This document shows, one piece after another, positions 19,394 through 40,545 of a stretch of 45,683 nt of DNA. Each line of letters begins with the position of its first letter. The stretch's first letter is position 1. Under the pieces are notes generated by a model. The model worked only from the letters and a program-made list of their open reading frames with translations. It searched no databases and was not told the DNA's origin. The stretch lies in contig JAEZFA010000249.1 in NCBI GenBank assembly GCA_023417665.1, positions 1 to 45,683 of the forward strand, given 5' to 3'. The DNA is from Pseudomonadota bacterium (GTDB lineage Bacteria > Pseudomonadota > Alphaproteobacteria > Rhizobiales > Xanthobacteraceae). The position numbers and the translations under genes are program-made.

Positions 19394-20833
19394 ATGATCA
19401 GGACAGGTGAGCAGTATCGGGATTCCATCCGTGACGGCCGGCGCGTCTGGATAAACGGCGAGCGGGTTCAGGACGTGACCCGCCATCCGATGTTCCGTCC
19501 TGCGATTGATGTGCGTGCCTCCTGGTACGATATGCAGCACGACGCCAAGCATCGCGCGACGCTGGTGACGGAAACGGAAAAGTTCGGGCCGGTCTCCAAG
19601 GTTCTGTCGATGCCTTACACGAAAGAGGACTGGCACGAGAAGCGCGCGGCGGTCGAGCTCATGTTTGGCGCCGCAGGGGGCTTCATCACGCGCTATGGCG
19701 ATCCCGGAGAGCTCTGGGCCCTACACGACGGCGAGAAGGTGATCGCCGATCTCGTGCCGGAATATGTGCAGAACGTCCGCCGCCATATTGATCGCGTCAT
19801 CGAGCAGGACCTGTTCACGGCCTCCGCGAATACCGACCCGAAGGGCGACCGCTCCAAGCGCCCGCAGGATCAGGATCCCGACATGCTGCTGCGTGTCGTG
19901 AAGGAGACCGACGCCGGCATCATCGTGCGCGGCGCCAAATACGAGACGGCGGCGGCTTACGCCAACCAGGCGTTCACGAAGCCGACGATCGCGAATTGGG
20001 GCGACAGCGAGCTTTCCGATTACGCGGTCGGCTTCATGTGCAATCTGAGCGCGCCGAACCTGCGCTTCATCTGCCGGACCGGCTTCGCCGGCAACGGAAG
20101 CCCGGAAGATTATCCGCTGTCGAGCCGGTTCGACGAGGTCGATGCGCTGATCGTGTTCGACGACGTGCTGATCCCGTGGGAAGACGTGTTCTTCTGCCGT
20201 CAGACCAATGCCGCGACCTACATTCGCAGCACGCTGCATCGCTACGTCGTGTTCACCTTCGTGATGCGTGCAATGAAAATCGCCGACATGCTGATCGGCG
20301 CTTCGCTTCTCAACGTGCGCCAGACCGGCCTCGAAAAGCAGCCGGCGGTGCAGGAGAAGCTCGCCCACATGGCGGTCTATCGCGAAGGCATCAACGCCTA
20401 CCTCACGGCGGCGATTGCCAGCGCGGAAAGGAGCCCCGGCGGACTGATGATGCCGGCGCAGTCCTTCATGATGACGGGCCGGGTTTTCGCGGTGATGAAC
20501 CTGCACGAGATCGTCCATATCGCCCGCGAGCTTTGCGGCGGTCAGGTGTGCATTACCCCCGATATTGCGGCGTTCCGCGATCCGGAAACCGCGCCCTGGC
20601 TCGAGAAGTACTACACGATCAACGAGTCCTGGCAGGCGGAAGACCGCCGCAAGCTGCTGGCTTATGCGCGCGATCTCATCAATTCGGATTTCGCCGGTCA
20701 TCAGCTCAGCTTCAACTTGTTCTCGCACTCGCCGCCTTATGCGTTGCTCGGCGCGGTCTATCGAAACTTTCCTTGGTCCGAGCCGGTCGATTTCGTGCGC
20801 AAGTCTGCCGGGCTTTCCGACCGCGTGAAGTGA
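19394..20833 (+). CDS. HpaB-family (4-hydroxyphenylacetate 3-monooxygenase-like) FADH2-dependent oxygenase component
   Basis: 479 aa. 'TGEQYRDSIRDGRRVWINGERVQDVTRHP' is the hallmark N-terminus. 'IIVRGAK' and 'PLSSRFDE' are present. Confidence 0.85.
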   Translation: MIRTGEQYRDSIRDGRRVWINGERVQDVTRHPMFRPAIDVRASWYDMQHDAKHRATLVTETEKFGPVSKVLSMPYTKEDWHEKRAAVELMFGAAGGFITRYGDPGELWALHDGEKVIADLVPEYVQNVRRHIDRVIEQDLFTASANTDPKGDRSKRPQDQDPDMLLRVVKETDAGIIVRGAKYETAAAYANQAFTKPTIANWGDSELSDYAVGFMCNLSAPNLRFICRTGFAGNGSPEDYPLSSRFDEVDALIVFDDVLIPWEDVFFCRQTNAATYIRSTLHRYVVFTFVMRAMKIADMLIGASLLNVRQTGLEKQPAVQEKLAHMAVYREGINAYLTAAIASAERSPGGLMMPAQSFMMTGRVFAVMNLHEIVHIARELCGGQVCITPDIAAFRDPETAPWLEKYYTINESWQAEDRRKLLAYARDLINSDFAGHQLSFNLFSHSPPYALLGAVYRNFPWSEPVDFVRKSAGLSDRVK

Positions 20834-20837
20834 TGCC

Positions 20838-22133
20838 GTGAAGACGAAGCTTCAATTCCACCAGCAAGGCTTCGATCATGCGGATATTTCGGGGATCTGG
20901 AGGTCGGGCGAGGCGTCGCGCGATTTCCGGACGCTCTGCTCGTTTGGTGGCCGCTTCGCGGGCACCGCAAGCGAGCGCAATGCCACGGAATATCTTGCGC
21001 TTCGGCTGGAGCAGATCCTTGGCGTGCAGGCGCGGCGGCTGCCGGTACCTTATCTCGGCTGGGACCGCATCGGCGGCCGGCTGGATATGGCAGACGGCGT
21101 CACGATCCCGGCGACGCCGCTCGGCCGCTCTCCGGCGGTCAGCAAGCTGAAAACAAAGGTTGTCGATCTGGGGCGAGGCACGCGCCGCGATTTCGATGCC
21201 GCTGCCGACAGGATCGCGGGTTGTGCCGTGCTTGTCAGCCACGAATACATGCTCGCTTCCGGCCATGTGCACCGCCGCGACAAGTATCGCTGGGCGAAGA
21301 TGTTCGGCGCTTCGGCTTTCATCATTGCCTGCAATCTTCCGGGCAATCTCACGGTGACCGGCTCGGCGGGAAGCGGCGCCGAGGACGATATTCCCGCGGT
21401 CGGGGTGTCATATGAAGACGGCCGGCGCCTTGCCGCGCAAGACGGCGAGATTTCCATCACGGTCGAGGGGAAGTTCGAGAGACGCGTTGCGGAGAATCTG
21501 GTCGTCGATATTCCCGGCAACGGCGATCGCGTCATCCTGCTCTGTGCGCATATCGACGGGCATCACCTTTCCGAGAATGCGATCGACAACACTTCCGGTT
21601 TGACCGTGCTGCTGCTTGCAGCCGGCGTGATCGCCGACATTGCCGAGCGCAGCCGCTATGGGCTCAGGATCGTCCTGTTCAATGTCGAGGAATGGGCGGT
21701 CATTGGTTCCAAACACTATCTCGACTCGCTGCCGGAGCAGGAACGTGCACGCATCGTCCTGAATATCAATCTTGATTCCGTCGCGGGCGCGCGCTCGCTC
21801 ACCGTGCTGACCAGCGGACTTTCGGATTGCGAAGCGCTCGTGAACGAAGTGAACGAGCGTTCGTTGCTGGCACTTGGTATTGAGCGGCCGTTCCTGGGCA
21901 ATTCCGACCATGGAAATTTTATCCGGAAAGGGATTCCGGCAATGCGCCTTTGCGCTGGCTGGAATGACCCGGCCTCGAACCTGCGTTTTCTTCTGACGCC
22001 CGCCGATACGCCCGACAAGGTTTCTCTGCCCGAGATCGGGACGGCGGCGGTGGCAACGGCAATGCTTTTCGAGCGTGCGGTGCAGAGAGACGAGTTTCGC
22101 TTCGACCGCGCGCCGGTCAATGGAGAAGTCTAG
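20838..22133 (+). CDS. M28-family zinc aminopeptidase-like protein (no signal peptide)
   Basis: 431 aa with a GTG start. Full ligand set: 'CAHIDGHH', 'DNTSGL', 'FNVEEW', 'NLDSV', 'SDHGNF'. Confidence 0.8.
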   Translation: MKTKLQFHQQGFDHADISGIWRSGEASRDFRTLCSFGGRFAGTASERNATEYLALRLEQILGVQARRLPVPYLGWDRIGGRLDMADGVTIPATPLGRSPAVSKLKTKVVDLGRGTRRDFDAAADRIAGCAVLVSHEYMLASGHVHRRDKYRWAKMFGASAFIIACNLPGNLTVTGSAGSGAEDDIPAVGVSYEDGRRLAAQDGEISITVEGKFERRVAENLVVDIPGNGDRVILLCAHIDGHHLSENAIDNTSGLTVLLLAAGVIADIAERSRYGLRIVLFNVEEWAVIGSKHYLDSLPEQERARIVLNINLDSVAGARSLTVLTSGLSDCEALVNEVNERSLLALGIERPFLGNSDHGNFIRKGIPAMRLCAGWNDPASNLRFLLTPADTPDKVSLPEIGTAAVATAMLFERAVQRDEFRFDRAPVNGEV

Positions 22134-22627
22134 TGAAGGATATTCAGGAACGCTTCAGGCTTGCCATGCGCGGAACCGTTTCCGGCGTTTCGATCGTGAC
22201 CGCGGCCGGGGAAACCGGACACGTTGGCGTCACCGTGTCCTCGCTCTCGTCGCTGTCGCTGGAGCCGCCGTCGATCCTCGTGGCGATTCACGAGAAAAGC
22301 TACGCGCTTGCGACGATCGAGGCGCGGAAGCACTTCGCCGCCAATATCCTGTCGGGCAGCCAGATGTATCTCGCGGAGATCTTTGCCGGAAGAAGGCCGG
22401 ACATGAGAGGCGACAGGTTCAGCCATGCCTGCTGGCGAACGCTCGCGAGCGGCGCGCCGATTCTGGAGCATGCGATCGCCGCTTTCGACTGCAAGCTGGT
22501 GCAGGTCGTGCCGTTCGGGTCGCACCGGATTCTTCTTGGCGAGGTGCTGGACCTTCGCCATTCCATCGCGCCGGCGCTGTTCTATTCCAACGGCGTTTTC
22601 GGGACTGCGCAGTCCGATCTCGGATAG
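22133..22627 (+). CDS. Flavin reductase (HpaC/flavin_reduct domain)
   Basis: 164 aa. 'FRLAMRGTVSGVSIVTA…VTVSSLSSLSLEPPSILVAI'. GTG overlaps the M28 stop by 1 nt. Confidence 0.85.
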   Translation: MKDIQERFRLAMRGTVSGVSIVTAAGETGHVGVTVSSLSSLSLEPPSILVAIHEKSYALATIEARKHFAANILSGSQMYLAEIFAGRRPDMRGDRFSHACWRTLASGAPILEHAIAAFDCKLVQVVPFGSHRILLGEVLDLRHSIAPALFYSNGVFGTAQSDLG

Positions 22628-22711: not shown

Positions 22712-23314
22712 TCAGGCGAGCTTCTTTCTGGTTGGCCGGGCTTTGCGTTTCGACGCCGACCGCGTCGTCAGATAGTCCGAGCTTTTTGCAAGCCGCGATT
22801 TCAGGTGGCCGGCGAAATCAACGGCGGTTGCGCCGCCATCGGATAGCCGACGCATGATCTTGCACAGTATTCTGAACTCGTCGGCATTCAACGTCTCAAA
22901 AAGCATGTCGTTGACAGGCCGCTGGAGGATCGCGAGACGAGCGAGCAGGGCGTTTCCCTGACTTGTTATCGCCAGTCTCACACGCCGGCCATCCACCTGA
23001 TGTGGACGCTTGCTGACCAGCTTGTCGTCGACGAGCTTGTTTATCTCGAGCGTCACGAAAGCGCTGCTCAGGTGGAGACGCTTGGCGATATAGCCGACAC
23101 CTTCGCTTTGCGGAGATTGTGCGATCGCGATCAGGATCAAATATTGGGCAGTGGAAAGTCCGGCGTATTCCGCGAACTTCCCGCGCGCTGCTTCGAGGCA
23201 GCTGCCGAACGCAAAGAAATCATACAGTAACGCTCGAAACGTCCGGTCGCTCCCCTGGTCGAGCAGTTCCGCTTTCGAGACCGTTCGCAGATTGGCCAAT
23301 GTTTGATCCCCCAT
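22712..23314 (-). CDS. MarR-family transcriptional regulator
   Basis: 200 aa. 'GLSTAQYLILIAIAQ…GYIAKRLHLSSAFVTLEINKLVDDKLVSKRPHQVDGRRVRLAIT' is a winged HTH. Has a basic C-terminal tail. Confidence 0.85.
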   Translation of the reverse strand: MGDQTLANLRTVSKAELLDQGSDRTFRALLYDFFAFGSCLEAARGKFAEYAGLSTAQYLILIAIAQSPQSEGVGYIAKRLHLSSAFVTLEINKLVDDKLVSKRPHQVDGRRVRLAITSQGNALLARLAILQRPVNDMLFETLNADEFRILCKIMRRLSDGGATAVDFAGHLKSRLAKSSDYLTTRSASKRKARPTRKKLA

Positions 23315-23361
23315 GCCGCGCTTCTGTGCAGCAAGTTAGCCAACCCGGCCGCATTGCACAA

Positions 23362-23382
23362 TTGACAGCAATTTATATTTGC
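23362..23382. promoter_or_regulatory. Candidate -35 box / MarR operator
   Basis: TTGACA (23362-23367) is followed by GCAATTTATATTTGC (GCAA-N7-TTGC dyad) in the 124-bp divergent spacer. Confidence 0.3.
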
Positions 23383-23438
23383 CACAAAACTATCTCAGAA
23401 ATGGAAACGCAAGCACCGCGTTGACGTTTGGAGGCGGG

Positions 23439-23957
23439 ATGGACGGCCGAGGCTTTCGCAAAGCGCTAGGAGAGTTCGCTACCGGCGTCGCCATCATTAC
23501 CGCCCGCAGCAAGGGCGAGGAACTGATCGGCATGACGATGAGCTCCTTCAACTCCGTTTCCGTCGATCCTCCACTGGTTCTGTTCAGCGTAGATCGTCGC
23601 GCGTACAGCCTTGATGCGATGCTCGTGGCGTCAGGTTTTGCCGTGAACGTGCTTTCGCGCGATCAGGAATGGCTTTCCGACAGGTTTGCACGCGCGCTCG
23701 GCGACAAATGGAGCAGCGTCGAGCACACGATCGGGCATGAAGAGGCGCCGCTGCTGTCTGGCGCTCTCGCGCATTTCGAGTGCGAGCCTTACGCGAATTA
23801 CGAAGGCGGCGACCACATTATTTTTGTCGTTCGCGTGCTTCGGTATTCGGTGCGGGGCGATCCCGCGCAGCCTTTGATTTTCTTTCGTGGTCGGTATCGG
23901 GATCTCGTTGGTGAGGGCGAGAGAGAACCCGCCTGGCCACTGCCAATCCACTACTAA
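23439..23957 (+). CDS. Flavin reductase (flavin_reduct domain)
   Basis: ATG 23439 sits 4 nt after a GGAGG RBS. 'FRKALGEFATGVAIITA…MTMSSFNSVSVDPPLVLFSV'. Confidence 0.85.
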   Translation: MDGRGFRKALGEFATGVAIITARSKGEELIGMTMSSFNSVSVDPPLVLFSVDRRAYSLDAMLVASGFAVNVLSRDQEWLSDRFARALGDKWSSVEHTIGHEEAPLLSGALAHFECEPYANYEGGDHIIFVVRVLRYSVRGDPAQPLIFFRGRYRDLVGEGEREPAWPLPIHY

Positions 23958-23977
23958 TAACGGATGGAACGACCCAA

Positions 23978-25453
23978 ATGATGCGATCAGCCAAAGAGTA
24001 TTTGTCGGCACTGCGGGATGGCAGGCAGATATTCATCAACGGCAAGCTCGTTGAAGATGTCACGACGCACCCCGCGTTTCACAATGTAGCCCGCTCGATG
24101 GGGCGGCTGTTCGATTTTGCGAAAGCCGACGCCAACCGCAAACTCATGACGTTCGAAACCGAAGCGGGGCCGGCAAACCGGATATGGCAGCTCCCGACTT
24201 CCTATGACGAACTTGTCGAGCGCCGCCACGCGCTTGAGGCGTGGGGTTCGCTGCATGCCGGATATCTGGGCCGCGCGCCCGATCACGTTGCCTCGTGCAT
24301 TTCCGGTCTTTACATGGGGCTCGACGTTTTCAACGAATACGATCCGGCTCGGGCCGAAGCGCTGGCGAATTACTATCGCTATGCGCGCGACAACGATCTC
24401 TATCTCACTTATGTGATCATCAATCCGCAGGCGGACCGCTCGAAGGGCGCTGCCGAGCAGGCGGATCCGTATCTCACGGCAGGGGTTGTCGCGAAGGACG
24501 CCGAAGGAATTACCATTCGCGGCGCGAAGATGCTTGCGACCGGCGGCGTCGTCGCCGACGAAGTCTTCGTCACCACGATCCAGCCGATGCGCCCGGGCGA
24601 GGAGCGGTATGCGATGTCATTCGCCATACCGATCGGCGCCAAGGGATTGAAGCTGCTTTCGAGGAAGTCCTACGAGGAGTCCGCCGGCGCGGTCTTCGAC
24701 AGTCCGCTCTCGAGCCGCTTCGACGAGAACGATTCCGTGCTTTATTTCGACGACGTCAAGGTGCCCTGGGAGCGCGTGTTCATCGAGGGCAGCGTGGAGA
24801 TGTGCCAGAAGCAGTTCCACGCAACGCCGGCGCATGTATTCCAGAATTATCAGGCCATGGTCCGCCTGACGGTCAAGCTGCGCTTTCTCACGGGGATCGC
24901 GCATCGCATTGCCGAGATCAACGGCGTGACCCAGTTTCCGCAAGTCAAGGAAATGCTCGGTCAGGTCGCGGCCGAGGCGGGTATGGTCGATGCCCTGGTC
25001 GCGGCGATGGAAGCGAAGGGTTCGATGTACGGACCCTACTACATCCCGCACAAGCATACGCTCTATTCCGCGCAGGTCTTGACGCAGCAACTGTATTCCA
25101 AGGTCGTCAACACGCTTCGCGAGCTGGCCGGCGGCGGCATGATCATGCTGCCGTCCTCGGTCGAGGACTATTCGAATCCCGAGATTGCCGATCTGATCTC
25201 GAAGACGCAGCAGTCGCCCAATGCCAGCTCGAGCGAGCGCGTGAAGTTCTACAAGCTTGCATGGGATGCGGTGGGGTCCGAATTCGGATCACGACACCAG
25301 CAGTATGAAATGTTCTACGCCGGCGCGACTTTCGTGACGAAGGCGCATTCCTACCGGACATACGACTGGGCATCCGCGAACAAGCTCGTGCAAGGAATTC
25401 TCGAATCCTACGACCTCGCCGGCGATCTAAGCCGCGAGAACAAGGCAGCGTGA
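23978..25453 (+). CDS. HpaB-family FADH2-dependent oxygenase component (second paralogue)
   Basis: 491 aa. 'SAKEYLSALRDGRQIFINGKLVEDVTTHPAF', 'ITIRGAKM', 'PLSSRFDENDSVLYFDDVKVPWERVF'. Confidence 0.9.
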   Translation: MMRSAKEYLSALRDGRQIFINGKLVEDVTTHPAFHNVARSMGRLFDFAKADANRKLMTFETEAGPANRIWQLPTSYDELVERRHALEAWGSLHAGYLGRAPDHVASCISGLYMGLDVFNEYDPARAEALANYYRYARDNDLYLTYVIINPQADRSKGAAEQADPYLTAGVVAKDAEGITIRGAKMLATGGVVADEVFVTTIQPMRPGEERYAMSFAIPIGAKGLKLLSRKSYEESAGAVFDSPLSSRFDENDSVLYFDDVKVPWERVFIEGSVEMCQKQFHATPAHVFQNYQAMVRLTVKLRFLTGIAHRIAEINGVTQFPQVKEMLGQVAAEAGMVDALVAAMEAKGSMYGPYYIPHKHTLYSAQVLTQQLYSKVVNTLRELAGGGMIMLPSSVEDYSNPEIADLISKTQQSPNASSSERVKFYKLAWDAVGSEFGSRHQQYEMFYAGATFVTKAHSYRTYDWASANKLVQGILESYDLAGDLSRENKAA

Positions 25454-25465
25454 GGGAGCGCCGGT

Positions 25466-25846
25466 ATGCCCGTAAACAAGAAACACGATGAGTTCTACAC
25501 GCTCGACATGTCGTCGGGGTGGGAAACTCCGGCGGGTTACCCTGCCGGAATTCAGCAAAAGATTCTTTCCGGCGCACTGGACGAAGAGGCAATGCGCGGT
25601 ACGCGCACGCGGCTGCTGCGCTTTGCGCCGGGGACCTACACCACGAAGCCCTTTTCTCACGAGTACTGGGAGGAGGTTTATCTCATCTCCGGAGACCTGA
25701 TCGTCGGCAATGACGAGAAGGGCAATGGCGGACAGAATTTTCCGCCGAACACCTATGCGTGCCGCCCACCGCACGCAAAACACGGGCCGTTCAAATCAGA
25801 GAACGGCTGCATGCTTATCGAAATTCACTACTTCGATCCTGTTTAA
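25466..25846 (+). CDS. Cupin-domain protein
   Basis: 126 aa. 'HEYWEEVYLISGDLIVG' and 'PPHAKHGPF' form a two-motif cupin barrel. Not assignable to a dioxygenase family by eye. Confidence 0.6.
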   Translation: MPVNKKHDEFYTLDMSSGWETPAGYPAGIQQKILSGALDEEAMRGTRTRLLRFAPGTYTTKPFSHEYWEEVYLISGDLIVGNDEKGNGGQNFPPNTYACRPPHAKHGPFKSENGCMLIEIHYFDPV

Positions 25847-25887
25847 GTCACCCACTCGTATCAGCACTCGCAAACGGGGGAATAAAA

Positions 25888-27183
25888 ATGAAAGTACGAA
25901 ATTTCCTACTGTGTTTGGCATTCGCAGCCGGTGTGGCGGCGTCCGGACCCGCTTCCGCGCAGGAAAAGCCGGCAACGCTCAATGTCGGCATCTTCACCTT
26001 CACCTCCGGCCCGGCCGCGGCCTATGGCATGCCAGGCAAGAATGCCGCCGATCTGATGATCGAAATGATCAACGCGACCGGCGGCATCGGTGGCGTTCCG
26101 CTCGCTGCAACCTATGTCGATGAGGCGCAGGGCGCGCAAGGCGTGATCGCCGAGTATCGCCGGCTGGCCAGCGATCAAAAGAACCAGGTCATGATTGCAG
26201 CGCTGTCCAGCGCGAACTGTCTTGCCTTGGCTCCGATTGCCGAGCAGTTGCAGATGCCGACCATCGGCTGGAACTGCGATACGCACCAGCTGCTGCTGGA
26301 CGGCAAGAGCAAGTTCGTGTTTCGGCCCAACGGAAACACCATTCCCGAGTTCATGGCCTATGCGATCTATCTGCTGCAGCACAAGCCGGACGTGAAAACG
26401 ATCGCGATCATCAATCCGGACTATGCCTTCGGTCACGATGCGGCAACGATCTTCAAGGCCGCGCTGAAGGCGTTCAAGCCGGATGTTGAAGTGGTCGCCG
26501 AGCTTTATCCGAAACTCGGCTCTCCGAACTTCCAGACCGAGATTTCCCGCCTCGCGACCGCGCGGCCGGATGTGATTTTCTCCAATCTCTGGGGTGCGGA
26601 TCTTGAGAATTTCATCCGTCAGGCCTCGCCCCGCGGGATCTTCTCGTCCAGTCAGGTGGTTCTGGCGCTCGGTGAAACCGTTCTCCAGCGCGTTCCTCTG
26701 CCCGAAGGCGTGATCGTCGGCGTGCTCGGCGACGGCTGGTGGATGTCGTCGGATTCGAAGAAGAACGAGATGACCGCGAAATTCGCCGAAGCCTACAAGA
26801 AGCGCTTCGGGGAGTATCCGGTGTTCCCGTCGATGAAGATGGCGAATACGCTGCTTTACATGAAGGCGGCCTACGAAGCCGCGCTCAAGAAGAATAACGG
26901 AAAATGGCCGACGCGCGAACAGGTGGCCGATGCCATGAAGGGAAGCGTCGTTCCCACCCTGACCGGTATTGCGCGCACGCGTCCCGACAATGACGGCGTC
27001 GTCGATCAGATCGTCGGCGTGACGGTCAAGTCGTCCGCGTACCCGTTCCCGGTGATCGGAAAAATGGTCCGCTACAAGGGCGAGTCGTTGATGCCTGCGG
27101 GTAATGAAGACCCGATCAAGTGGATTTCTACGTTGAAGCCCGACTTCGTGGCCAATGCCCCGAAGCCGGACAGCTACAAGTAG
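25888..27183 (+). CDS. ABC substrate-binding protein (LivK/branched-chain amino-acid/amide type, family 4)
   Basis: ATG 25888. Signal peptide MKVRNFLLCLAFAAGVAASGPASAQE. 'LNVGIFTFTSGPAAAYG' is typical of Leu/Ile/Val/urea/amide binding proteins. Confidence 0.8.
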   Translation: MKVRNFLLCLAFAAGVAASGPASAQEKPATLNVGIFTFTSGPAAAYGMPGKNAADLMIEMINATGGIGGVPLAATYVDEAQGAQGVIAEYRRLASDQKNQVMIAALSSANCLALAPIAEQLQMPTIGWNCDTHQLLLDGKSKFVFRPNGNTIPEFMAYAIYLLQHKPDVKTIAIINPDYAFGHDAATIFKAALKAFKPDVEVVAELYPKLGSPNFQTEISRLATARPDVIFSNLWGADLENFIRQASPRGIFSSSQVVLALGETVLQRVPLPEGVIVGVLGDGWWMSSDSKKNEMTAKFAEAYKKRFGEYPVFPSMKMANTLLYMKAAYEAALKKNNGKWPTREQVADAMKGSVVPTLTGIARTRPDNDGVVDQIVGVTVKSSAYPFPVIGKMVRYKGESLMPAGNEDPIKWISTLKPDFVANAPKPDSYK

Positions 27184-27210
27184 CGCCATACACCACAGAC
27201 CCGGAAGCGG

Positions 27211-28122
27211 TTGTTACATACGATGCTTGCTCTCGCGATCACTCTTCTGCTCGACAGTCTGGCCAGCGCGGCGCTGATATTCTTTGCCGCCGTTGGATTG
27301 ACGTTGGTCTTTAGTGTTCTGCGCGTATTGAATGTGGCTCATGGCAGCCTCTATTCGATCGGAGCCTATGTAGCCGCTTCCGGGTGCCTTTTCGTCGCGA
27401 GCGCGGGGCTCGATCCTCGCCTCTCGTTCGTGGCGCTGCTTTTCAGTGCGGTTCTCGTCGCCGCGGCGCTTGGGCCGCTGATCGAAAGAACGCTGATCCG
27501 CTGGACGTACGGAAAATCGGAAGCGGTTCAGATTCTCGTGACGTTTGGCCTGTTCCTGATGCTGGAGGACATCCAGAGAAAAGTATTCGGCGTGCAGTCG
27601 TTTTACGAAGACACGCCGATGCGACTTCTCGGAACTTCGGAAATCGGGGGGATTGTCTATCTCAACTACCAGCTCCTGCTTATTGCCGCCGCTGCCGTCG
27701 TGGTGGTCGGGCTGCGCCTGATCATCCGGCGGACCCGAATCGGCCGGCTGGTAACCGCCGTCGTGGTGGATCGCGAGATGGCGCTCTCGGTCGGGATCAA
27801 TACGAGCCGCATCTTCGTGCTTGCGTTTTCGTTCGGCGTTTTTCTCGCGGCGTTGGGCGGTGCCCTGGCCGTGCCGACATCGGGCGTTGCTCCCGGACTG
27901 GGGGCCGACACCATGGTCCTTGCGTTCGCGGTCGCCGCGATCGGCGGCCTGGGGCAAATTGAAGGGGCCGCGGTTGCAGCCGTCATCGTCGGGGTCGCGC
28001 GGGTTCTTGCGATCTATTTCGTGCCGTCGCTCGATGCGGTCGCGCCTTATGCGGCCATGCTGGCGGTGCTGCTCGTCAAGCCTTACGGACTGTTTGGCTC
28101 CGTAACTGCGAGGCGGATCTGA
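27211..28122 (+). CDS. livH: Branched-chain amino-acid-type ABC permease (LivH-like)
   Basis: About 300 aa polytopic protein. 'NVAHGSLYSIGAY' is the LivH motif. Start is TTG 27211 or ATG 27223. Confidence 0.85.
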   Translation: MLHTMLALAITLLLDSLASAALIFFAAVGLTLVFSVLRVLNVAHGSLYSIGAYVAASGCLFVASAGLDPRLSFVALLFSAVLVAAALGPLIERTLIRWTYGKSEAVQILVTFGLFLMLEDIQRKVFGVQSFYEDTPMRLLGTSEIGGIVYLNYQLLLIAAAAVVVVGLRLIIRRTRIGRLVTAVVVDREMALSVGINTSRIFVLAFSFGVFLAALGGALAVPTSGVAPGLGADTMVLAFAVAAIGGLGQIEGAAVAAVIVGVARVLAIYFVPSLDAVAPYAAMLAVLLVKPYGLFGSVTARRI

Positions 28123-29045
28123 TGGTTCGTATCGCGTTCATCGTGGGCCTTGCGGCGCTGGCCATTGCGCCGCTGCTGGCACCCTGGCTGCAATTCGTTC
28201 TCACGGTCGCGATTGCGAAGGGATTTGCGGCGCTCGGGGTCGCGATCCTGTTGCGGGCGGGGCTGATCTCGATTGGCCATGCAATGTTCTTTGCCGTCAG
28301 CGCCTATGCCTCGGCCTTTCTGCTTCGTTTCGGTGTCACCGAGTTCGTCGCGATCCTGTTGATTTCGGTCATCGTGTCGGGGATCGTCGGCGCCATCGCG
28401 GGTCTCTTTCTCGTCCGCTATCGCGCGATATTTTTCGCGATGTTGAATCTCGCGATTTCGATGGTGTTTTACGCGCTGTTTGCGAAGCTCTACCGCGTAA
28501 CCGGCGGCACCGACGGCATGCCGATGCCAATCCCCACCTTGTTCGGCGCATCGCTTAGCGAACCGGTGTTCAAGAACATCCTCTTCTACCTCTCGATCGG
28601 CCTGATGCTTGCGGTCGGGTGGCTCATGCACAAGTACCTGCAAAGCCCGCTGGGACAGGCGCTGGCGGCGGTCCACACGAACGAGGTGAGGCTCGAATAT
28701 ATCGGCGTCTCGGTGAAGCGGGTGCTTCTCGTCGCCTATATTATCTCCGCGGTTCTCGCCGGCATCGGCGGCACCATCGCCGGCTTCGCAATCGGCCGCG
28801 TGATTCCGGACTTCGCGTTCTGGACGGCATCGGGGCATCTCGTGCTGGTTGCGGTTCTCGGCGGGATTGGCGGTATCGCCGGAGCGTTCATCGGCGCGCT
28901 GTTCCTAGAGTTGTTGCACACGGTCGCGGTCACGATCACCGATGCGTGGAATTTCATCGTCGGCGCGGTGCTGATCGGAGTCATCATGTTTCTCCCGCAA
29001 GGGCTTTACGGGTTGCTGACGCGCCGGAAAGTGTCGGTGAAATGA
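28122..29045 (+). CDS. livM: Branched-chain amino-acid-type ABC permease (LivM-like)
   Basis: 307 aa. 'GLISIGHAMFFAVSAY' is the LivM motif. 1-nt overlap with livH and ATGA overlap with livG. Confidence 0.85.
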   Translation: MVRIAFIVGLAALAIAPLLAPWLQFVLTVAIAKGFAALGVAILLRAGLISIGHAMFFAVSAYASAFLLRFGVTEFVAILLISVIVSGIVGAIAGLFLVRYRAIFFAMLNLAISMVFYALFAKLYRVTGGTDGMPMPIPTLFGASLSEPVFKNILFYLSIGLMLAVGWLMHKYLQSPLGQALAAVHTNEVRLEYIGVSVKRVLLVAYIISAVLAGIGGTIAGFAIGRVIPDFAFWTASGHLVLVAVLGGIGGIAGAFIGALFLELLHTVAVTITDAWNFIVGAVLIGVIMFLPQGLYGLLTRRKVSVK

Positions 29046-29794
29046 GCGCGCGCGTCCTGAAGGTCAGGGATATTCACGTCGACTTCGGCGGCATCAAAGC
29101 GGCCGACGGCGTGAGCCTCGACGTGTTCGACGGTGAGTTTCTCGCTGTTATCGGGCCGAATGGTTCGGGCAAGACGACCTTGCTGAACATTTGCACCGGT
29201 TATGTGCGGCCGGCTTCGGGCGAGATCCATTTGCACGACCGCGAGATCACGAAACTTTCGCCGCGCGACATCGCTCATCTTGGCGTCGCGCGAGCCTTTC
29301 AGATTCCGCAGTTGTTCTCGGACCAGACCGTTATCGACAACATTATGCTGGCGCTTGCCGCCAAGAAGGGCTTCTGGACGGGAACGCGTCCGCTCGCGTC
29401 CGAAAGCCGCCGGGCAGAGGCGGAGTCGCTGCTTGGCCTTTTCGGGCTCGAACAGGACAAGGACCGGGTCAGCAATACGCTTCCCGAAGGTCACCGGAAG
29501 CTTCTCGATATCGCCATTGCGCTCGCACAAAAGCCGCGCCTGCTGCTTCTCGATGAGCCGACGAGCGGCGTCAGCGCGCTCGAGCGGTTTCAGATCATGG
29601 AAGCGTTGATGGCGGTGCTGCGAAAGCAGAACGTCACCGCGCTTTTCGTCGAGCACGACATGGATGTCGTGGCGCGCTACGCGGACCGGGTGCTGGTCTG
29701 GAACTCCGGGAAGATCATGGCCGAAGGCAGTCCGGACCAAGTATTCAGCGATGCGAGAGTGCTCGAGAGCGTCGTGGGAGTGGCGCGATGCTGA
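29042..29794 (+). CDS. livG: ABC ATP-binding protein (LivG-like)
   Basis: 250 aa from ATG 29042 (the ORF track's 28619 start is a spurious extension through livM). Walker A 'GPNGSGKTT', 'LLLDEPTSGV'. Confidence 0.85.
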   Translation: MSARVLKVRDIHVDFGGIKAADGVSLDVFDGEFLAVIGPNGSGKTTLLNICTGYVRPASGEIHLHDREITKLSPRDIAHLGVARAFQIPQLFSDQTVIDNIMLALAAKKGFWTGTRPLASESRRAEAESLLGLFGLEQDKDRVSNTLPEGHRKLLDIAIALAQKPRLLLLDEPTSGVSALERFQIMEALMAVLRKQNVTALFVEHDMDVVARYADRVLVWNSGKIMAEGSPDQVFSDARVLESVVGVARC

Positions 29795-30444
29795 CGTTGA
29801 ACGATGTGCGTGCGTCCATCGGCGGGGTGCCGGTTCTTCGCAATGCAAGCTGTGTTGTTGCCAACGGCAAGACGACGGTTCTTGTCGGGCGCAATGGCGC
29901 CGGTAAAACGACGACGCTCCGGGCAATCATGGGACTGCTCAGGATCGACCACGGAGAAATCCGGCTCGACGACCGGGATATCGTGGCCGATCCGGCATAT
30001 CTGCGCGCGAAGCTGGGGATCGGTTACGCGCCGGAGGACCGCAGGCTGGTTCCTGAATTCAGCATCGAAGAAAACATCACCTTGCCGGCATTGGCGCTTG
30101 CGCTTCCAGGCGCGGAAGTCAGCCGCCGTCTCTCTGAAATTTACAGCCTGCTGCCGCAGCTGGAAAAATTGCGGCTCCGGCCCGGCGGCTCGGTTTCCGG
30201 CGGTCAGGGCAAGATGGTTGCACTGGGGCGCGCACTGATGGTTGCGCGGACGGCGCTGCTGCTGGACGAGCCGTTTCAGGGGCTGGCGCCGGCGCTGGCG
30301 CTCGAATATGCGCAGACGCTCGGCGAGTTGCGGAAACGCCGGCCCGAGCTTTCACTCCTGATTACGGAATCGTCCCCGGCGCTTCTCAACGATGTCGCGG
30401 ACGTAACCTTCCAGATCGAGCGTGGGGACATTTCCCCGGCCTAG
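29788..30444 (+). CDS. livF: ABC ATP-binding protein (LivF-like)
   Basis: 218 aa. 'GRNGAGKTT', 'VSGGQGKMVALGRAL', 'LLLDEPFQGLAP'. Confidence 0.85.
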   Translation: MLTLNDVRASIGGVPVLRNASCVVANGKTTVLVGRNGAGKTTTLRAIMGLLRIDHGEIRLDDRDIVADPAYLRAKLGIGYAPEDRRLVPEFSIEENITLPALALALPGAEVSRRLSEIYSLLPQLEKLRLRPGGSVSGGQGKMVALGRALMVARTALLLDEPFQGLAPALALEYAQTLGELRKRRPELSLLITESSPALLNDVADVTFQIERGDISPA

Positions 30445-30463
30445 GGATGCGTGAGAAAATAAA

Positions 30464-31147
30464 ATGACATTGCGCTTCAGAAGACATGCCGGAAACATTC
30501 AGGACAGCGTTGCAATCGAGATCGATACGCTGGTCATCGCGGGATGGGCTGGCCGGAACGCCGCTGCAATAGAACATCATATCGAGGAGCTTGCCGCACT
30601 CGGCATCCCCCGTCCTTCGACGACACCGCTGTTCTATCGCGTGGCTGCGGAGACTTTGACGCAAACGGACAAGCTGACTGTGCTCGGCCCCGACGGCTCC
30701 GGCGAAGTCGAACCCGTGATCGTTTCCATGGCTGACGGCCTGTGGGTCGGGATCGGTTCGGATCACACGGATCGAAAGGCCGAAGCCCATGGCATTGCGC
30801 TATCCAAACAGATGTGCGGCAAGCCGGTCGGGATTGAACTCTGGCGTTACGAAGACGTCGAGAAGCATTGGGACGAGTTGCAGCTTCGATCCTGGATGAC
30901 GATTGCGGGAAAGAAGACGCTGTATCAGGAGAGCAGTATTTCCGCCTTGCGCAGTCCGCGCGATCTCGTCGAGCGATACACGGGTGGAAAATCGCTGCCG
31001 ACCGGCACCCTGATGTTCTGCGGAACTCCCGCCGCGATCGACGGGATCCGCATGGGTTCTCGCTTCGAGATGGAAATTACCGATCCTGTGCTGCAACGCT
31101 CGCTTCGCCACGCATACGACGTCGTAGAGCTTCCGGTCGTTTCGTGA
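30464..31147 (+). CDS. DUF2848-like protein (function unknown)
   Basis: 227 aa. 'LVIAGWAGRN…IEHHIEELAALGIPRPSTTPLFYRV…GSDHTDRKAEAHGIALSKQMCGKP…' matches my recollection of DUF2848. Not verified by search. Confidence 0.5.
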   Translation: MTLRFRRHAGNIQDSVAIEIDTLVIAGWAGRNAAAIEHHIEELAALGIPRPSTTPLFYRVAAETLTQTDKLTVLGPDGSGEVEPVIVSMADGLWVGIGSDHTDRKAEAHGIALSKQMCGKPVGIELWRYEDVEKHWDELQLRSWMTIAGKKTLYQESSISALRSPRDLVERYTGGKSLPTGTLMFCGTPAAIDGIRMGSRFEMEITDPVLQRSLRHAYDVVELPVVS

Positions 31148-31160
31148 GCCGCTGATCGCC

Positions 31161-32468
31161 ATGGATCGCAGGGCTCAGGAATCCGCCGTCGCGAAGCTGG
31201 AGAGTGCTTTGGCAAGCATTCGATCGGCGGATCACGAGGGTAAGAAGGTATTCACGAAGGTTTTTGCCGAAAGCGCACGGCAGGAAGCGGAAGCATCCGA
31301 TCAGCGGCGCAAATCCGGCACGCTGCGCGGCTCGCTGGATGGCGCGATTGTCTCAATCAAGGCGCTTTTCGACGTCGCAGGAGAGGTTACGGCCGCCGGT
31401 TCAAAGCTGCTGCGCGGGCTTCCGGAAGCAAAATCCGACGCGGTCGTCGTATCCCGCCTGCGGAGCGCAGGAGCCGTAATCATCGGCACCACGCAGATGA
31501 CGGAGTTCGCCTTCTCGGCACTCGGCGTCAACCCGCATGACGAAGTGCCCGGGAATCCGGCCGACCGCCAGCGCGTTCCGGGCGGCTCGTCATCCGGTGC
31601 GGTTGTTTCCGTGATTGATGGTATGGCGGAGATTGCGATCGGGAGCGATACCGGAGGCTCGATCCGCATTCCTGCGGCTCTGTCCGGTGCGGTCGGCTTC
31701 AAGCCGACGGCAGGACGAATTCCGACGCATGGCGCCTTTTCGCTGTCGACAACGCTCGATACGGTCGGACCGATATCCGACAGCGTCGCCAATTGCGCCG
31801 CTGCCTATCAGACTCTTGCCGAAACTTCGCAAGACGAGTTAACGGCCGCTTCACCCGGGAGCTTTCGGCTCACAATTGCGCGGGGCCGGCTGTTCGACGG
31901 CTGCGACGAAACCGTCGAGCGCTCGTTTTCCGACGCCGTGAAGCTTCTTCGGACACAGGATGTTGACGTCCAGGACGGCAATATCGATGCGGCGTTGAAC
32001 GCGATCGCGGAAATCGACAGGATCGGGACATTCCCCTCCATCGAGGTGCGAGTAAGCCTGCGCAGCCTCGGGATCGAGGATCTTGAAGAGGTCGATCCGA
32101 ATACCAGAGTTCGGATAGAGGCCGGGGACAAAGTGAGTGCGTCCGACTATGTGAGAATGGTCAGGCTGCGCAACGCTGCAGTTACGGCATTTGAATCCTC
32201 GCTGGCAGCCAATGAAGTCGTCGTTCTGCCGACGACACCCATCGTTGCGCCGACAATAAGCTCGGTTGCGACACCGGCGGAATTTCACAGCAAGAACGGA
32301 TCGGTCTTGCGCAATCCCCGCGTTGCGAATCTGCTGGATTGTCCGTCGATTTCGCTTCCGCTGCCGGGCGACTTGCCTACCGGCTTCATGCTGATCGGGA
32401 AGCGCGGCGCAGATGAGGGCCTGTTGCGGATTGCGCGCTGCATCGAGTCGATGATCAAGCTGCATTGA
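31161..32468 (+). CDS. Amidase-signature (AS) family amidase
   Basis: 435 aa. Lys in 'VSIKALFDVAG', 'GGSSSGAVVSV', 'GSDTGGSIRIPAA' give an intact Ser-cisSer-Lys triad. Confidence 0.9.
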   Translation: MDRRAQESAVAKLESALASIRSADHEGKKVFTKVFAESARQEAEASDQRRKSGTLRGSLDGAIVSIKALFDVAGEVTAAGSKLLRGLPEAKSDAVVVSRLRSAGAVIIGTTQMTEFAFSALGVNPHDEVPGNPADRQRVPGGSSSGAVVSVIDGMAEIAIGSDTGGSIRIPAALSGAVGFKPTAGRIPTHGAFSLSTTLDTVGPISDSVANCAAAYQTLAETSQDELTAASPGSFRLTIARGRLFDGCDETVERSFSDAVKLLRTQDVDVQDGNIDAALNAIAEIDRIGTFPSIEVRVSLRSLGIEDLEEVDPNTRVRIEAGDKVSASDYVRMVRLRNAAVTAFESSLAANEVVVLPTTPIVAPTISSVATPAEFHSKNGSVLRNPRVANLLDCPSISLPLPGDLPTGFMLIGKRGADEGLLRIARCIESMIKLH

Positions 32469-32613: not shown

Positions 32614-32829
32614 CATAAATTTGACTTAGGTCAGCGACGGGCACAAAATTTTGGAAATGTGCACGAAACCGCATAGCTCACGCATGTTTAGCGCGCTGCC
32701 CACGGCCCGAGGGCGCGTGGCCGTTGCTTCGGCCGGCGCGACACCGGGCGGCGAGGGGAACGCTGCTTCCCTGAAATTCCATGCCGCAGGACATTCTCTC
32801 GCCCAGCGCCGAAACAGGCGGTGTCGCTG

Positions 32830-38623: not shown

Positions 38624-38784
38624 TTGAAAGGCGAGCAACGCATTCTGGAATCCGTCGATGACGCAAACTGTTCGGCTCCATCGCCATTGCGATCCACGTT
38701 TCGCCTGCGGGTTCGTCGCTGCTTCAACGAGCAATACGCCGGGGCGACGCGGCGACGGTGAGCAATTGTGCAAGGAGATGTGGA

Positions 38785-39990: not shown

Positions 39991-40041
39991 GGCGCGAAAG
40001 GCGAGGAATTCCAGAAGCCAACCGCAACGGAGTGGCGGGAC

Positions 40042-40545
40042 GTGAGCACCGACAAGTCAATTTCGGCGGATCTGTTCAAGCAAAGCATGCGCTTCCTCGC
40101 CGGAGGCGTATGCATTCTCGCAACGAACAGCGACGGCGAGCGGTATGGAATTACAATGACTGCCGTTTGCTCGCTGACGATCGATCCGCCGTCGCTGGTT
40201 GCCTGCGTGAACCGCAATACCGGCACGCATGTAACCATGTGCCGGACGAAACGGGTCAGCATCAACGTATTGTCGGATGACCAGACGGACATGGCCGAAC
40301 TCTTCGCGTCCAGCGCGGTAAGAGGGCCGCAGCGCTTCGATAACGAAAAGTGGACCGAAATGCCGAGCGGCGTGCCTGCGCTTCTCGGCGCGCTCGCGGT
40401 GCTTGATTGCGAGGTCGTTCAGCAAACCTCGGTAGGACAGCATTCGGTTTTCTTCTGTGAAGTGAAGAACGCCGTGCTTCAGCCGGAGCGGGGCGCGCTC
40501 GTGCACTTCAATCAGAAATTCTTCGCCGTTCAGCCGTCTTGCTGA
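40042..40545 (+). CDS. Flavin reductase (third copy)
   Basis: 167 aa with a GTG start. 'FKQSMRFLAGGVCILAT…ITMTAVCSLTIDPPSLVACV'. Confidence 0.8.
   Translation: MSTDKSISADLFKQSMRFLAGGVCILATNSDGERYGITMTAVCSLTIDPPSLVACVNRNTGTHVTMCRTKRVSINVLSDDQTDMAELFASSAVRGPQRFDNEKWTEMPSGVPALLGALAVLDCEVVQQTSVGQHSVFFCEVKNAVLQPERGALVHFNQKFFAVQPSC

Follow-up and report, generated by a model that had tools for sequence, protein, structure and literature searches.

A MarR-linked operon with an HpaB-type oxygenase, a Liv-type importer, a DUF2848 protein and an amidase, possibly for the breakdown of a small nitrogen-containing aromatic acid

We tentatively propose that ten genes divergent from a MarR-family regulator gene constitute a MarR-repressed operon for the uptake and breakdown of a small nitrogen-containing aromatic or heteroaromatic carboxylic acid, a general scheme that we favour as our working model. 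Pyrrole-2-carboxylate is the most economical candidate and our best guess for the substrate, although a doubtful one. The arrangement is not due to chance, and the gene set recurs across loci of other genomes.

Results

The sequence-only reading had described ten co-directional genes from 23439 to 32468, divergent from a MarR gene and separated by 41 nt or less. Pfam searches bear out this gene content (Table 1), and the spacers measure 20, 12, 41, 27, 19 and 13 nt, with overlaps at three junctions. Promoter- or terminator-like sites within the gene block were in no excess over shuffled sequence, and the view that the genes act as one functional unit under the divergent MarR protein is supported.

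Table 1. Features of the operon and its regulatory region
Feature	Position	Strand	Pfam match	Remark
MarR-family regulator, 200 aa	22712..23314	-	MarR_2, 34 bits	divergent from operon
TTGACA -35-like hexamer, operon promoter	23362..23367	+		read from sequence
Probable MarR operator (predicted)	23374..23392			degenerate palindrome copy
NAD(P)H:flavin reductase, small component of two-component monooxygenase	23439..23957	+	Flavin_Reduct, 142 bits	ORF 23379-23957; probable ATG 23439
HpaB-family flavin-dependent oxygenase, 491 aa	23978..25453	+	HpaB_N, 302 bits; HpaB, 203 bits	
Small monocupin, 126 aa, Cupin_7/ChrR-like	25466..25846	+	Cupin_7, 29.8 bits	
Periplasmic binding protein, HAAT/Liv-type ABC importer	25888..27183	+	Peripla_BP_6, 180 bits	ORF opens at 25759
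Permease, LivH/UrtB-like	27211..28122	+	BPD_transp_2, 96 bits	
Permease, LivM/UrtC-like	28122..29045	+	BPD_transp_2, 97 bits	start overlaps preceding stop
ABC ATPase, LivG-like	29042..29794	+	ABC_tran, 100 bits	4-nt overlap with preceding gene
ABC ATPase, LivF-like	29788..30444	+	ABC_tran, 92 bits	7-nt overlap with preceding gene
DUF2848 protein, 227 aa	30464..31147	+	DUF2848, 269 bits; FAA_hydrolase, 27.7 bits	
Amidase-signature enzyme, 435 aa	31161..32468	+	Amidase, 236 bits	

In related loci the MarR gene usually lies divergent from the flavin reductase gene, and the promoter carries a conserved palindrome, TAGCTTT-N5-AAAGCTA, of which 40 of the 46 orthologous intergenic regions hold a perfect copy. 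The sole match with three mismatches or fewer in the window (the whole stretch of DNA analysed, 45.7 kb) is the degenerate copy TATATTTgccacAAAACTA, situated directly 3' of a TTGACA hexamer. In alignment this hexamer coincides with a TTGAC block that 25 related loci share between their MarR and reductase genes. We regard the palindrome as the probable binding site of MarR, a protein that is 50-59% identical to its orthologues (operon enzymes, 70-90%).

The cupin is very highly conserved, with 4648 homologue clusters, the best 120 of which are 77-88% identical. Of 85 loci anchored on the cupin in other genomes, where related genomes are not independent samples, 79 hold HpaB, 71 MarR, 70 the flavin reductase, 61 DUF2848, 43 the binding protein and 40 the amidase. 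The set recurs in Alpha- and Betaproteobacteria: the ten-gene order is identical in 15 loci, where amidase orthologues (63-67% identity) are the last gene, is kept without the amidase in 7, and is shuffled in Bosea, Rhizobium, Shinella, Acidibrevibacterium, Thioclava and Caballeronia, while Thermoleophilaceae carry a cupin-amidase-DUF2848 core. Natural fusions join Cupin_7 to DUF2848 (7 contigs) and HpaB to DUF2848 (one contig), and a CN_hydrolase-Cupin_7 fusion adjoins DUF2848 in Priestia megaterium. The cupin/DUF2848/amide-hydrolase set also occurs without an oxygenase, by TRAP or MFS carriers, aminotransferases and a D-glutamate-cyclase-like hydro-lyase. It is well supported that these three enzymes form a conserved module of their own. 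Within its host genus the operon is accessory: 14 further species of that genus did not yield it. Our literature search found no paper on the cluster, which is real and widely conserved, yet unstudied.

Could two unrelated modules have been joined by chance in one transcript, a MarR/HpaB/cupin unit detoxifying a phenolic compound and a Liv-type importer that, with DUF2848 and the amidase, draws nitrogen from an aliphatic amide or the amide of an amino acid? We consider this improbable. Although MarR-reductase-HpaB-cupin does stand alone in Tardiphaga and Bradyrhizobium loci (L100, L102, L105), at least five distinct gene orders bring the halves back together in different families, fusions tie the cupin both to DUF2848 and to an amide hydrolase as well as HpaB to DUF2848, and the conserved operator lies upstream of the whole block. 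The adjacency of DUF2848 and the amidase, a point raised for checking in the sequence-only reading, is conserved: when the phylum was sampled evenly, about 24 of the 32 loci with DUF2848 showed it. Such pairs occur there without HpaB, as separate modules would predict.

The binding protein starts at ATG 25888, from which a signal peptide ending in ASA|QE is read. The importer is not orthologous to those for Leu/Ile/Val or urea: the scores of its binding protein lie far under the cut-offs of the LivJ/K (54 versus 477 bits) and UrtA (75 versus 493) models. Among solved structures, 3i45 and 4ey3 come nearest to the binding protein, the latter of which we take to be an aromatic-acid-binding protein of Rhodopseudomonas palustris. 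The best NCBIfam match of the flavin reductase is the p-hydroxyphenylacetate hydroxylase reductase (161 bits, cut-off 340), and the best solved relatives of the oxygenase are 4-HPA 3-monooxygenases (277-290 bits; TIGR02309 345 bits, cut-off 480). Compared with the pocket of Thermus HpaB, R99 is retained, whereas Y104 is replaced by H103, H142 by Y145 and S197/T198 by I201/Q202, so that an Arg/His/Tyr set is kept at the phenol-binding positions, but swapped. Because this set is retained and the closest likeness is to phenol-type 4-HPA hydroxylases, a phenolic substrate may apply.

The predicted structure of DUF2848 (AF2, pLDDT 97.3) matches only FAH-fold enzymes in Foldseek (probability 1.0, TM 0.6-0.68), including the fumarylpyruvate and maleylpyruvate hydrolases 4maq, 6j5y and 6jvw. 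In an hhalign comparison with a canonical FAH protein, H39 falls on the histidine of GRNYxxH, and the metal ligands of ExE are matched by E81/E83; E81, E83, S99, D100, H101, D103, R104 and K115 are invariant or nearly so. As modelled, DUF2848 is a divergent, hidden FAH-superfamily enzyme that retains the metal site of the family. Chelation of 2-oxo or 2,4-dioxo acids is typical of FAH enzymes, and the earlier label of an uncharacterised protein therefore needs qualifying, since a fold of the 2-oxo-acid-binding kind makes it not wholly obscure. The cupin model (pLDDT 92.7) resembles TM1459, KdgF, Dke1 and DddK (TM 0.64-0.69). H65, E69, E70 and H106 are invariant, and in the cupin motif the position of the second His is taken by Y67; H65, E69/E70 and H106 make a possible 2-His-1-Glu metal site, and the cupin could be a ring-cleaving dioxygenase instead of an isomerase.

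Such a dioxygenase would be required if an aromatic amide or anilide were imported and cleaved first by the amidase, as the sequence-only reading had it, with HpaB hydroxylating the resulting acid or phenol, the cupin cleaving the dihydroxy ring and DUF2848 hydrolysing the fission product in the manner of a fumaryl- or maleyl-pyruvate hydrolase, altogether a short pathway resembling the gentisate or homogentisate route. This order and this substrate class are not supported, and we judge the route unlikely. The phenol hydroxylases related to HpaB, the hydrolases among the DUF2848 matches, the likeness of the binding protein to 4ey3, and a cupin site that could hold Fe(II), with the dioxygenase Dke1 among its fold matches, all speak for it. 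However, one residue of the standard metal motif, the second His, is missing from the cupin, and the cupin-DUF2848 pair occurs by aminotransferases or TRAP carriers in loci without an oxygenase, where there is no obvious substrate for O2-dependent cleavage of an aromatic ring.

The amidase weighs further against an amidase-first order. Its Lys-cisSer-Ser triad is intact, as previously noted (K67, S143 in GGSS, S167 in DTGGSIR), and it scores slightly under the cut-offs of PRK05962 (430 versus 463) and PRK07056 (428 versus 447). In related loci its place is sometimes taken by a Nit2-type omega-amidase, of a family acting on small aliphatic amides. The CN_hydrolase adjoining a cupin-DUF2848 fusion has as its best solved relative 3p8k, an unnamed carbon-nitrogen hydrolase, followed by mouse Nit2 (2w1v) and yeast Nit3 (1f89); both Nit enzymes act as omega-amidases on 2-oxoglutaramate. 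The 7 same-order operons without the amidase suggest a final step that a housekeeping enzyme could cover, not an initial one. Because of these losses and the Nit2-type swap, and because of the oxygenase-free sets and a DUF2848 fold that binds 2-oxo acids, amide hydrolysis probably occurs late, on a small 2-oxo-acid amide, and the amidase most likely acts last.

The oxygenase-free contexts fit such chemistry. In Ralstonia and Vibrio, DUF2848 and the cupin lie downstream of aminotransferases, and elsewhere DUF2848 and the amidase lie downstream of TRAP carriers together with the D-glutamate-cyclase-like hydro-lyase. Aminotransferases yield 2-oxo acids, TRAP carriers take carboxylates, and the hydro-lyase family is tied to 5-oxoproline chemistry. 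As a counterpoint, the aminotransferase-linked variants have no amidase, an absence that the 2-oxoglutaramate idea neither needs nor explains.

A route for aminobenzoates or aminophenols is, in our view, also improbable. Here HpaB would hydroxylate an amino-aromatic acid (e.g. anthranilate or 3-aminobenzoate), the cupin would cleave the ring in the way of the dioxygenases for 3-hydroxyanthranilate or 5-aminosalicylate, the ring-fission product would be deaminated by the amidase-signature enzyme as an enamine deaminase, and DUF2848 would hydrolyse or decarboxylate the 2-oxo-dienoate so formed. This leaves the TRAP, hydro-lyase and aminotransferase contexts unexplained, the cupin belongs to Cupin_7 and not to the 3-hydroxyanthranilate dioxygenase family, the decarboxylase, semialdehyde dehydrogenase or isomerase needed is absent from the conserved set, and a Nit2-type omega-amidase in the place of the amidase points to true amide hydrolysis. 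On the other hand, CnbZ of Comamonas CNB-1 is an amidase-signature protein that deaminates 2-aminomuconate-type compounds, and fumarylpyruvate hydrolases as well as decarboxylases of the 4-oxalocrotonate type share the FAH fold. An HpaB-type anthranilate hydroxylase is moreover recorded in Geobacillus (Liu et al. 2010, as cited in PMC6165268).

In 12 loci a UbiD decarboxylase follows the HpaB-cupin core, with TctCBA and UbiX also present. The best solved relative of this UbiD is HmfF, the 2,5-furandicarboxylate decarboxylase (277 bits), whose substrate is a five-membered heteroaromatic acid, a point in favour of the scheme set out below.

Discussion

In the scheme that we favour, the Liv-type importer would bring the compound into the cell and the flavin reductase would supply reduced flavin for hydroxylation of the ring by the HpaB-type oxygenase, both well-supported steps. 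Downstream of import, each step is proposed from gene context: the hydroxylated product may tautomerise to a lactam or enol form, the cupin and DUF2848 may convert it, by isomerisation, hydration or ring opening, into an open-chain omega-amide of a 2-oxo acid, and the amidase would release ammonia and a central 2-oxo acid. For the candidate substrate, pyrrole-2-carboxylate would pass via 5-hydroxypyrrole-2-carboxylate and 2-hydroxy-5-oxoproline/2-oxoglutaramate to 2-oxoglutarate and NH4+, and the mass balance fits (pyrrole-2-carboxylate + O + H2O = 2-oxoglutaramate).

The hpa system with its HpaBC 4-hydroxyphenylacetate 3-monooxygenase (E. coli W; Thermus thermophilus HpaB, PDB 2yyg/2yyj) likewise pairs a small flavin reductase with an HpaB-fold oxygenase, is controlled by a MarR-type regulator (HpaR) and uses a FAH-fold enzyme, HpaG/HpcE, downstream, as DUF2848 could be here. 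Yet our oxygenase falls under the HpaB equivalog cut-off and has an altered pocket, and instead of an extradiol dioxygenase, dehydrogenase, hydratase and aldolase the operon holds a small cupin, DUF2848, an amidase and a Liv-type importer. The gentisate pathway also places a cupin (gentisate 1,2-dioxygenase) and a FAH-type fumaryl/maleylpyruvate hydrolase after an aromatic hydroxylase, but gentisate dioxygenases have two cupin domains in about 350 aa and bind iron through three His residues, whereas ours is a monocupin missing one His; the operon has no isomerase, and its cupin/DUF2848 pair occurs elsewhere without an oxygenase.

The final step proposed here resembles that of the glutamine transaminase/omega-amidase route (2-oxoglutaramate to 2-oxoglutarate and NH3), and a Nit2-like CN_hydrolase or an aminotransferase adjoins the cupin and DUF2848 in related loci. 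However, the hydrolase of the operon is of the amidase-signature type and not of the nitrilase superfamily, and the known route has neither the cupin nor the FAH-fold partner. For the oxygenase, a parallel is the pyrrole-2-carboxylate monooxygenase of Rhodococcus sp., a two-component flavin-dependent enzyme acting on a small heteroaromatic 2-carboxylate, as ours may be. Its end products are reportedly 2-oxoglutarate and ammonia, which the enzymes of the operon could deliver. The tentative link to this enzyme (Becker, Schrader and Andreesen 1997, listed as reference 51 in PMC6165268) is one of chemistry and gene context.

In the 2-furoate/HMF pathway of Cupriavidus basilensis HMF14 (hmfABCDE, hmfFGH), UbiD/UbiX decarboxylates a heteroaromatic dicarboxylate, as the HmfF-like UbiD of the 12 related loci may do. 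Our scheme would share its logic of C5 hydroxylation of a 2-carboxylate, tautomerisation and hydrolysis to a 2-oxoglutarate derivative, but the operon has no CoA ligase and no molybdenum hydroxylase, hydroxylation falling to a flavin monooxygenase, and the presence of an amidase suggests nitrogen rather than oxygen in the ring. By this analogy, the proposed breakdown of pyrrole-2-carboxylate would be a candidate nitrogen analogue of the 2-furoate route.

Architecture, boundaries and regulation of the operon

The gene list put forward by the sequence-only reading was borne out when we listed the open reading frames in all six frames and scanned them against Pfam and NCBIfam. The operon genes are separated by spacers of 41 nt or less, with overlaps at three junctions, and promoter-like or terminator-like matches inside the block were no commoner than in shuffled sequence. 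Downstream of the amidase gene, 360 nt of non-coding DNA precede an amidohydrolase/NMT1-type transporter set that forms a separate unit; a promoter-like TTGACT-N17-CAAAAT within this gap (32621-32649) marks the downstream end of the operon. Just upstream of the operon lies a second, tightly packed two-component trio, whose genes encode an oxygenase of the HpaB family (19394-20833), an M28 peptidase carrying a PA domain (20838-22133) and a flavin reductase (22133-22627). Neither this trio nor the downstream set was kept beside the operon in the loci from other genomes that we compared, and the genes flanking the operon are members of other units. A third flavin-dependent system occupies positions 38758-40545, where an oxygenase of acyl-CoA-dehydrogenase fold (group D) adjoins another flavin reductase, beside genes for a LysR regulator and a family III CoA-transferase.

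Genes of the operon and the divergent regulator gene
Feature	Position	Strand	Basis
MarR gene	22712-23314	-	Pfam/NCBIfam scans of six-frame ORFs
Flavin reductase	23439-23957	+	Pfam Flavin_Reduct
HpaB-family oxygenase	23978-25453	+	Pfam HpaB_N and HpaB
Cupin_7 protein, 126 aa	25466-25846	+	Pfam
Peripla_BP_6 binding protein	true start ATG 25888	+	signal peptide ending ASA|QE
BPD_transp_2 permeases (two)	between binding protein and ATPases	+	Pfam
ABC ATPases (two)	between permeases and DUF2848	+	Pfam
DUF2848	30464-31147	+	Pfam
Amidase-signature enzyme	31161-32468	+	Pfam Amidase

By Pfam, the importer is a complete five-component set of the HAAT type (binding protein, two BPD_transp_2 permeases and two ATPases), and about 40 related loci preserve it as one block. 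Its binding protein fell below the curated cut-offs for both LivJ/LivK (NF011933, 54.1 versus 477) and UrtA (TIGR03407, 74.6 versus 492.75).

The divergently transcribed regulator carries a winged-helix MarR domain, and a palindrome is present at the divergent promoter. Alignment of the MarR/reductase intergenic regions revealed a TTGACA box and, directly after it, TAGCTTT-N5-AAAGCTA, which is perfect in 40 of 46 other loci and which we regard as the putative MarR operator. The window copy (23374-23392, TATATTTgccacAAAACTA) has three mismatches and is the sole match in the window at up to three mismatches, and the window MarR is the least conserved protein of the operon set (50-59% identity to its orthologues), which suggests either a joint drift of operator and repressor or, here, weaker or relaxed repression. 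Another candidate operator, ATTGC-N10-GCAAT at 23355-23374, was dropped as it is not conserved in related loci.

Enzymes encoded by the operon

The oxygenase is covered over its full length (residues 6-475) by the HpaB_N (302 bits) and C-terminal HpaB (203 bits) domains, and scores below the cut-offs of the TIGR02309 equivalog (345.1 bits, cut-off 480.2) and of TIGR02310 (308.5, cut-off 885.2). In HpaB of Thermus, Arg100, Tyr104 and His142 reportedly bind the phenol and Ser197 and Thr198 the carboxylate. Alignment to the Thermus enzyme revealed that R99 is kept, that Y104 and H142 correspond to H103 and Y145 and that S197/T198 correspond to I201/Q202; the operon HpaB, which does not retain the full set of substrate residues, differs from the Thermus enzyme in that the Arg/His/Tyr set at the phenol site is present but swapped and the carboxylate loop is changed. 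The Flavin_Reduct gene ends 20 nt upstream of the HpaB gene, and the pair is kept in 70 of 85 related loci.

Among 4648 clusters of cupin homologues, the best 120 show 77-88% identity; between different bacterial families it is about 80%. Its structural model (pLDDT 92.7) is a plain monocupin that resembles TM1459, KdgF, Dke1, DddK and RemF alike, so the fold names no reaction. Motif 1 reads H65-E-Y67-W-E69-E70, with Tyr instead of the second His, and H106 of motif 2 is invariant. The metal motif is thus incomplete with respect to the canonical G-x5-H-x-H-x3,4-E ... H, and the residues present make a three-ligand metal site possible.

For DUF2848, a search of 1.84 billion representatives returned 1485 clusters at E ≤0.001, or about 1500 at 50% identity. 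An AlphaFold model on 92 diverse members (pLDDT 97.3) was used for Foldseek, whose top matches all have the FAH fold (probability 1.0, TM 0.6-0.68, 15-18% identity) and include Cg1458 oxaloacetate decarboxylase, fumaryl- and maleylpyruvate hydrolases, FAHD1, HpcE, YisK and KdaD. Pfam FAA_hydrolase matched DUF2848 in part (27.7 bits, cut-off 23.9), and hhalign against a canonical FAH protein (probability 89%) placed E81/E83 on the ExE ligands and H39 on the GRNYxxH histidine, the Asp ligand having no confident alignment. E83, S99 and D100 are invariant, and E81, H101, D103, R104 and K115 nearly so. Since a sequence search of solved structures gave a marginal match only (4maq, E = 0.35), the kinship with FAH is apparent only from fold and profile comparison; a protein atlas search with DUF2848 returned DUF2848 and FAH clusters only. 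On the basis of the FAH-fold model, the residues that align with the ExE ligands and the histidine, and their conservation, DUF2848 is a divergent enzyme of the FAH superfamily, and the residue pattern and the model indicate that it is very probably active. The superfamily comprises hydrolases, decarboxylases, isomerases and hydratases, which work on 2-oxo or 2,4-dioxo acids chelated by a metal. Two proteins (P0122 and P0126, 420-439 aa) are DUF2390-DUF2848 fusions, DUF2390 being a further uncharacterised family.

The amidase scored 236 bits against Pfam PF01425 (cut-off 27), and its Ser-cisSer-Lys triad, which the sequence-only reading had described as intact, is in place (K67, S143 in GGSS 141-144 and S167 in DTGGSIR, with roles assigned by motif). 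Against NCBIfam PRK07056 it scored 428.3, below the cut-off of 447, compared with 628 and 675 for the partner amidases at two related loci (L040 and L119). By these scores the window amidase belongs to a lineage close to, yet separate from, the PRK07056 subfamily, the usual partner of DUF2848.

Conservation and re-assortment in other genomes

We mapped the window proteins onto 85 loci, 80 of them anchored on the cupin in species-representative genomes and five from exact-protein look-ups. HpaB was present in 79, MarR in 71, the reductase in 70, DUF2848 in 61, the binding protein in 43 and the amidase in 40, all minimum counts because many contigs end early. Fifteen loci have the exact window order from reductase to amidase (Bradyrhizobium elkanii/ivorense group, Afipia clevelandensis, A. 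birgiae, and uncultured Afipia and Bradyrhizobiaceae MAGs), and seven (L051, L059, L062, L071, L072, L088 and L107) have the same nine-gene order without the terminal amidase, including a Nitrobacter MAG (L059) whose cupin is 90% identical. In place of the amidase, this MAG has a further cupin (58% identical), encoded about 2 kb downstream from DUF2848. In Bosea, Rhizobium, Shinella and Paenochrobactrum, reductase-HpaB-cupin-amidase is followed by a GntR gene and then by DUF2848 on the opposite strand, facing the importer. All gene types occur in Acidibrevibacterium, on a Thioclava plasmid and on plasmid pNK83 of Caballeronia sp. NK8, yet in other orders, and Thermoleophilaceae (Actinomycetota) have cupin-amidase-DUF2848-ABC. 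That the same parts are re-assorted in different lineages is strong evidence for a single function.

Downstream of the HpaB-cupin core, 12 loci carry a UbiD decarboxylase resembling HmfF (2,5-furandicarboxylate decarboxylase), TctCBA, a TPP enzyme and UbiX. A variant in Pseudolabrys/Bradyrhizobium (13 loci including L069, L079, L080, L086 and L103) has DUF2848, reductase, cupin and a 54%-identical HpaB, and adds an 'AA_synth' (PF06684) protein, an amidohydrolase and a second Liv-type binding protein. Three Bradyrhizobium loci (L028-L030, around 9226-10381) look like a decaying copy of the core: the cupin is intact, the adjacent HpaB is called at only 252 aa versus 491 aa in the window, and MarR is called in pieces in two of the three. 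Since searches of 14 other species from the window's genus (72-100% completeness) found neither DUF2848 nor the cupin, and the best matches to the operon are in Nitrobacter, Afipia and Bradyrhizobium genomes, the operon is an accessory trait of this 3-Mb genome, one that was probably acquired.

A module of cupin, DUF2848 and amide hydrolase

In an even sample of the phylum, DUF2848 was present in 32 of 401 genomes (8%), and in about 24 of the 32 loci an amidase of the PRK07056 subfamily lay within 3.5 kb; the DUF2848-amidase adjacency, which the sequence-only reading had singled out for comparison across genomes, is conserved. The two main DUF2848 contexts are the bare amidase-DUF2848 pair and the operon LysR | D-glutamate-cyclase-like 'putative hydro-lyase'-DctPQM-DUF2848-amidase. 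Seven contigs encode a Cupin_7-DUF2848 fusion. A TRAP carrier lies upstream in all of those displayed; where the contig reaches beyond the fusion, a CN_hydrolase (nitrilase superfamily) comes next. The best solved relative of this hydrolase is 3p8k, an unnamed carbon-nitrogen hydrolase, with the omega-amidases Nit2 of mouse and Nit3 of yeast ranking second and third. On a Priestia megaterium plasmid (NZ_CP146258; L149, 5250-7285) the module takes a Firmicute form: GntR, an MFS carrier, DUF2848 and, adjacent to DUF2848, a 386-aa CN_hydrolase-Cupin_7 fusion in which the Cupin_7 domain is C-terminal. Aminotransferase-DUF2848-cupin with an MFS carrier, without amidase, is found on Ralstonia solanacearum megaplasmids (L148, 7165-9417) and a Vibrio maritimus plasmid (L152, 6039-8354), and the two aminotransferases are not orthologous but come from different families (YbdL-type, and a MocR-like domain without HTH). 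An HpaB-DUF2848 fusion on one long-read contig is given little weight because that contig has other broken genes. The fusion proteins tie the parts of the module together, and its constant core is cupin plus DUF2848, usually with an amide hydrolase from either of two unrelated superfamilies.

The sequence-only reading, right about the operon itself, was borne out in part only in its interpretation, according to which the amidase would act first on an aromatic amide or anilide. That order is hard to square with the seven same-order operons that have no amidase, with the omega-amidase type that stands in for the amidase elsewhere and with cupin-DUF2848 pairs that occur without any oxygenase; we consider it unlikely, even though HpaB is closest to phenol hydroxylases and has their Arg/His/Tyr set, if swapped, the cupin could conceivably hold iron, and DUF2848 is as similar to fumarylpyruvate hydrolases as to any other FAH enzyme.

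Proposed pathway

In our reading, the variable 'front ends' of the module each deliver a carboxylate, by TRAP, Tct, MFS or Liv import, by transamination that turns an amino acid into a 2-oxo acid, by a 5-oxoproline-type hydro-lyase or, in the window, by ring hydroxylation, and 2-oxoglutaramate or its ring form 2-hydroxy-5-oxoproline would satisfy all of them. Glutamine transamination yields 2-oxoglutaramate, on which Nit2-type omega-amidases act. The compound is also the hydration product of 5-hydroxypyrrole-2-carboxylate, and the atoms balance (pyrrole-2-carboxylate + O + H2O = 2-oxoglutaramate). On the basis that this compound suits every front end, and from the gene associations, folds and motifs observed, we infer a sequence in which the substrate would be imported, the two-component flavin monooxygenase would hydroxylate it at C5, the cupin and DUF2848 would bring about tautomerisation, hydration or ring opening, and amide hydrolysis would yield 2-oxoglutarate and ammonium. 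The general scheme, in which amide hydrolysis comes last and its substrate is a 2-oxo-acid amide formed from a hydroxylated ring acid, is one that we favour tentatively; pyrrole-2-carboxylate as the specific substrate is more doubtful. A two-component monooxygenase acting on pyrrole-2-carboxylate has been reported from Rhodococcus sp. The proposed route would be a nitrogen counterpart of the furoate pathway, in keeping with the decarboxylase resembling HmfF that the variant loci encode. That UbiD was rejected as a pyrrole-2-carboxylate decarboxylase of the PA0254/HudA type (91 bits, versus 277 for HmfF). Nicotinate/picolinate (via 2,5-dihydroxypyridine), purine/ureide and methionine-salvage (acireductone dioxygenase) readings were also discarded, the defining enzymes of each being absent from the conserved set.

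At neutral pH, 2-oxoglutaramate is nearly all in the lactam form, 2-hydroxy-5-oxoproline, and we know of no enzyme described for the conversion of this lactam to 2-oxoglutaramate. A bolder and rather improbable proposal is that the operon encodes the gene-less pyrrole-2-carboxylate route and that the cupin and/or DUF2848 opens 2-hydroxy-5-oxoproline, or hydrates the dehydrated form, to 2-oxoglutaramate.

Significance

Our literature search found no published description of the cluster and no mention of DUF2848; the operon, catabolic and put together from known enzyme superfamilies, is widespread yet uncharacterised. Three of its ten products, the very highly conserved cupin, DUF2848 and the PRK07056-like amidase, have no assigned function yet are widespread. 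Identifying the substrate would put a name to an entire pathway in bacteria of soil and roots, among them Bradyrhizobium, Afipia, Bosea, Rhizobium and Burkholderiaceae, and a new branch of the FAH superfamily would gain a function. Genes for an enzyme activity recognised since the 1990s could follow from it, as could a step now missing from 2-oxoglutaramate metabolism. If the lactam-opening proposal is true, the cupin-DUF2848-amide hydrolase module would serve wherever 2-oxoglutaramate arises, be it after glutamine transamination, TRAP import or heteroaromatic hydroxylation.
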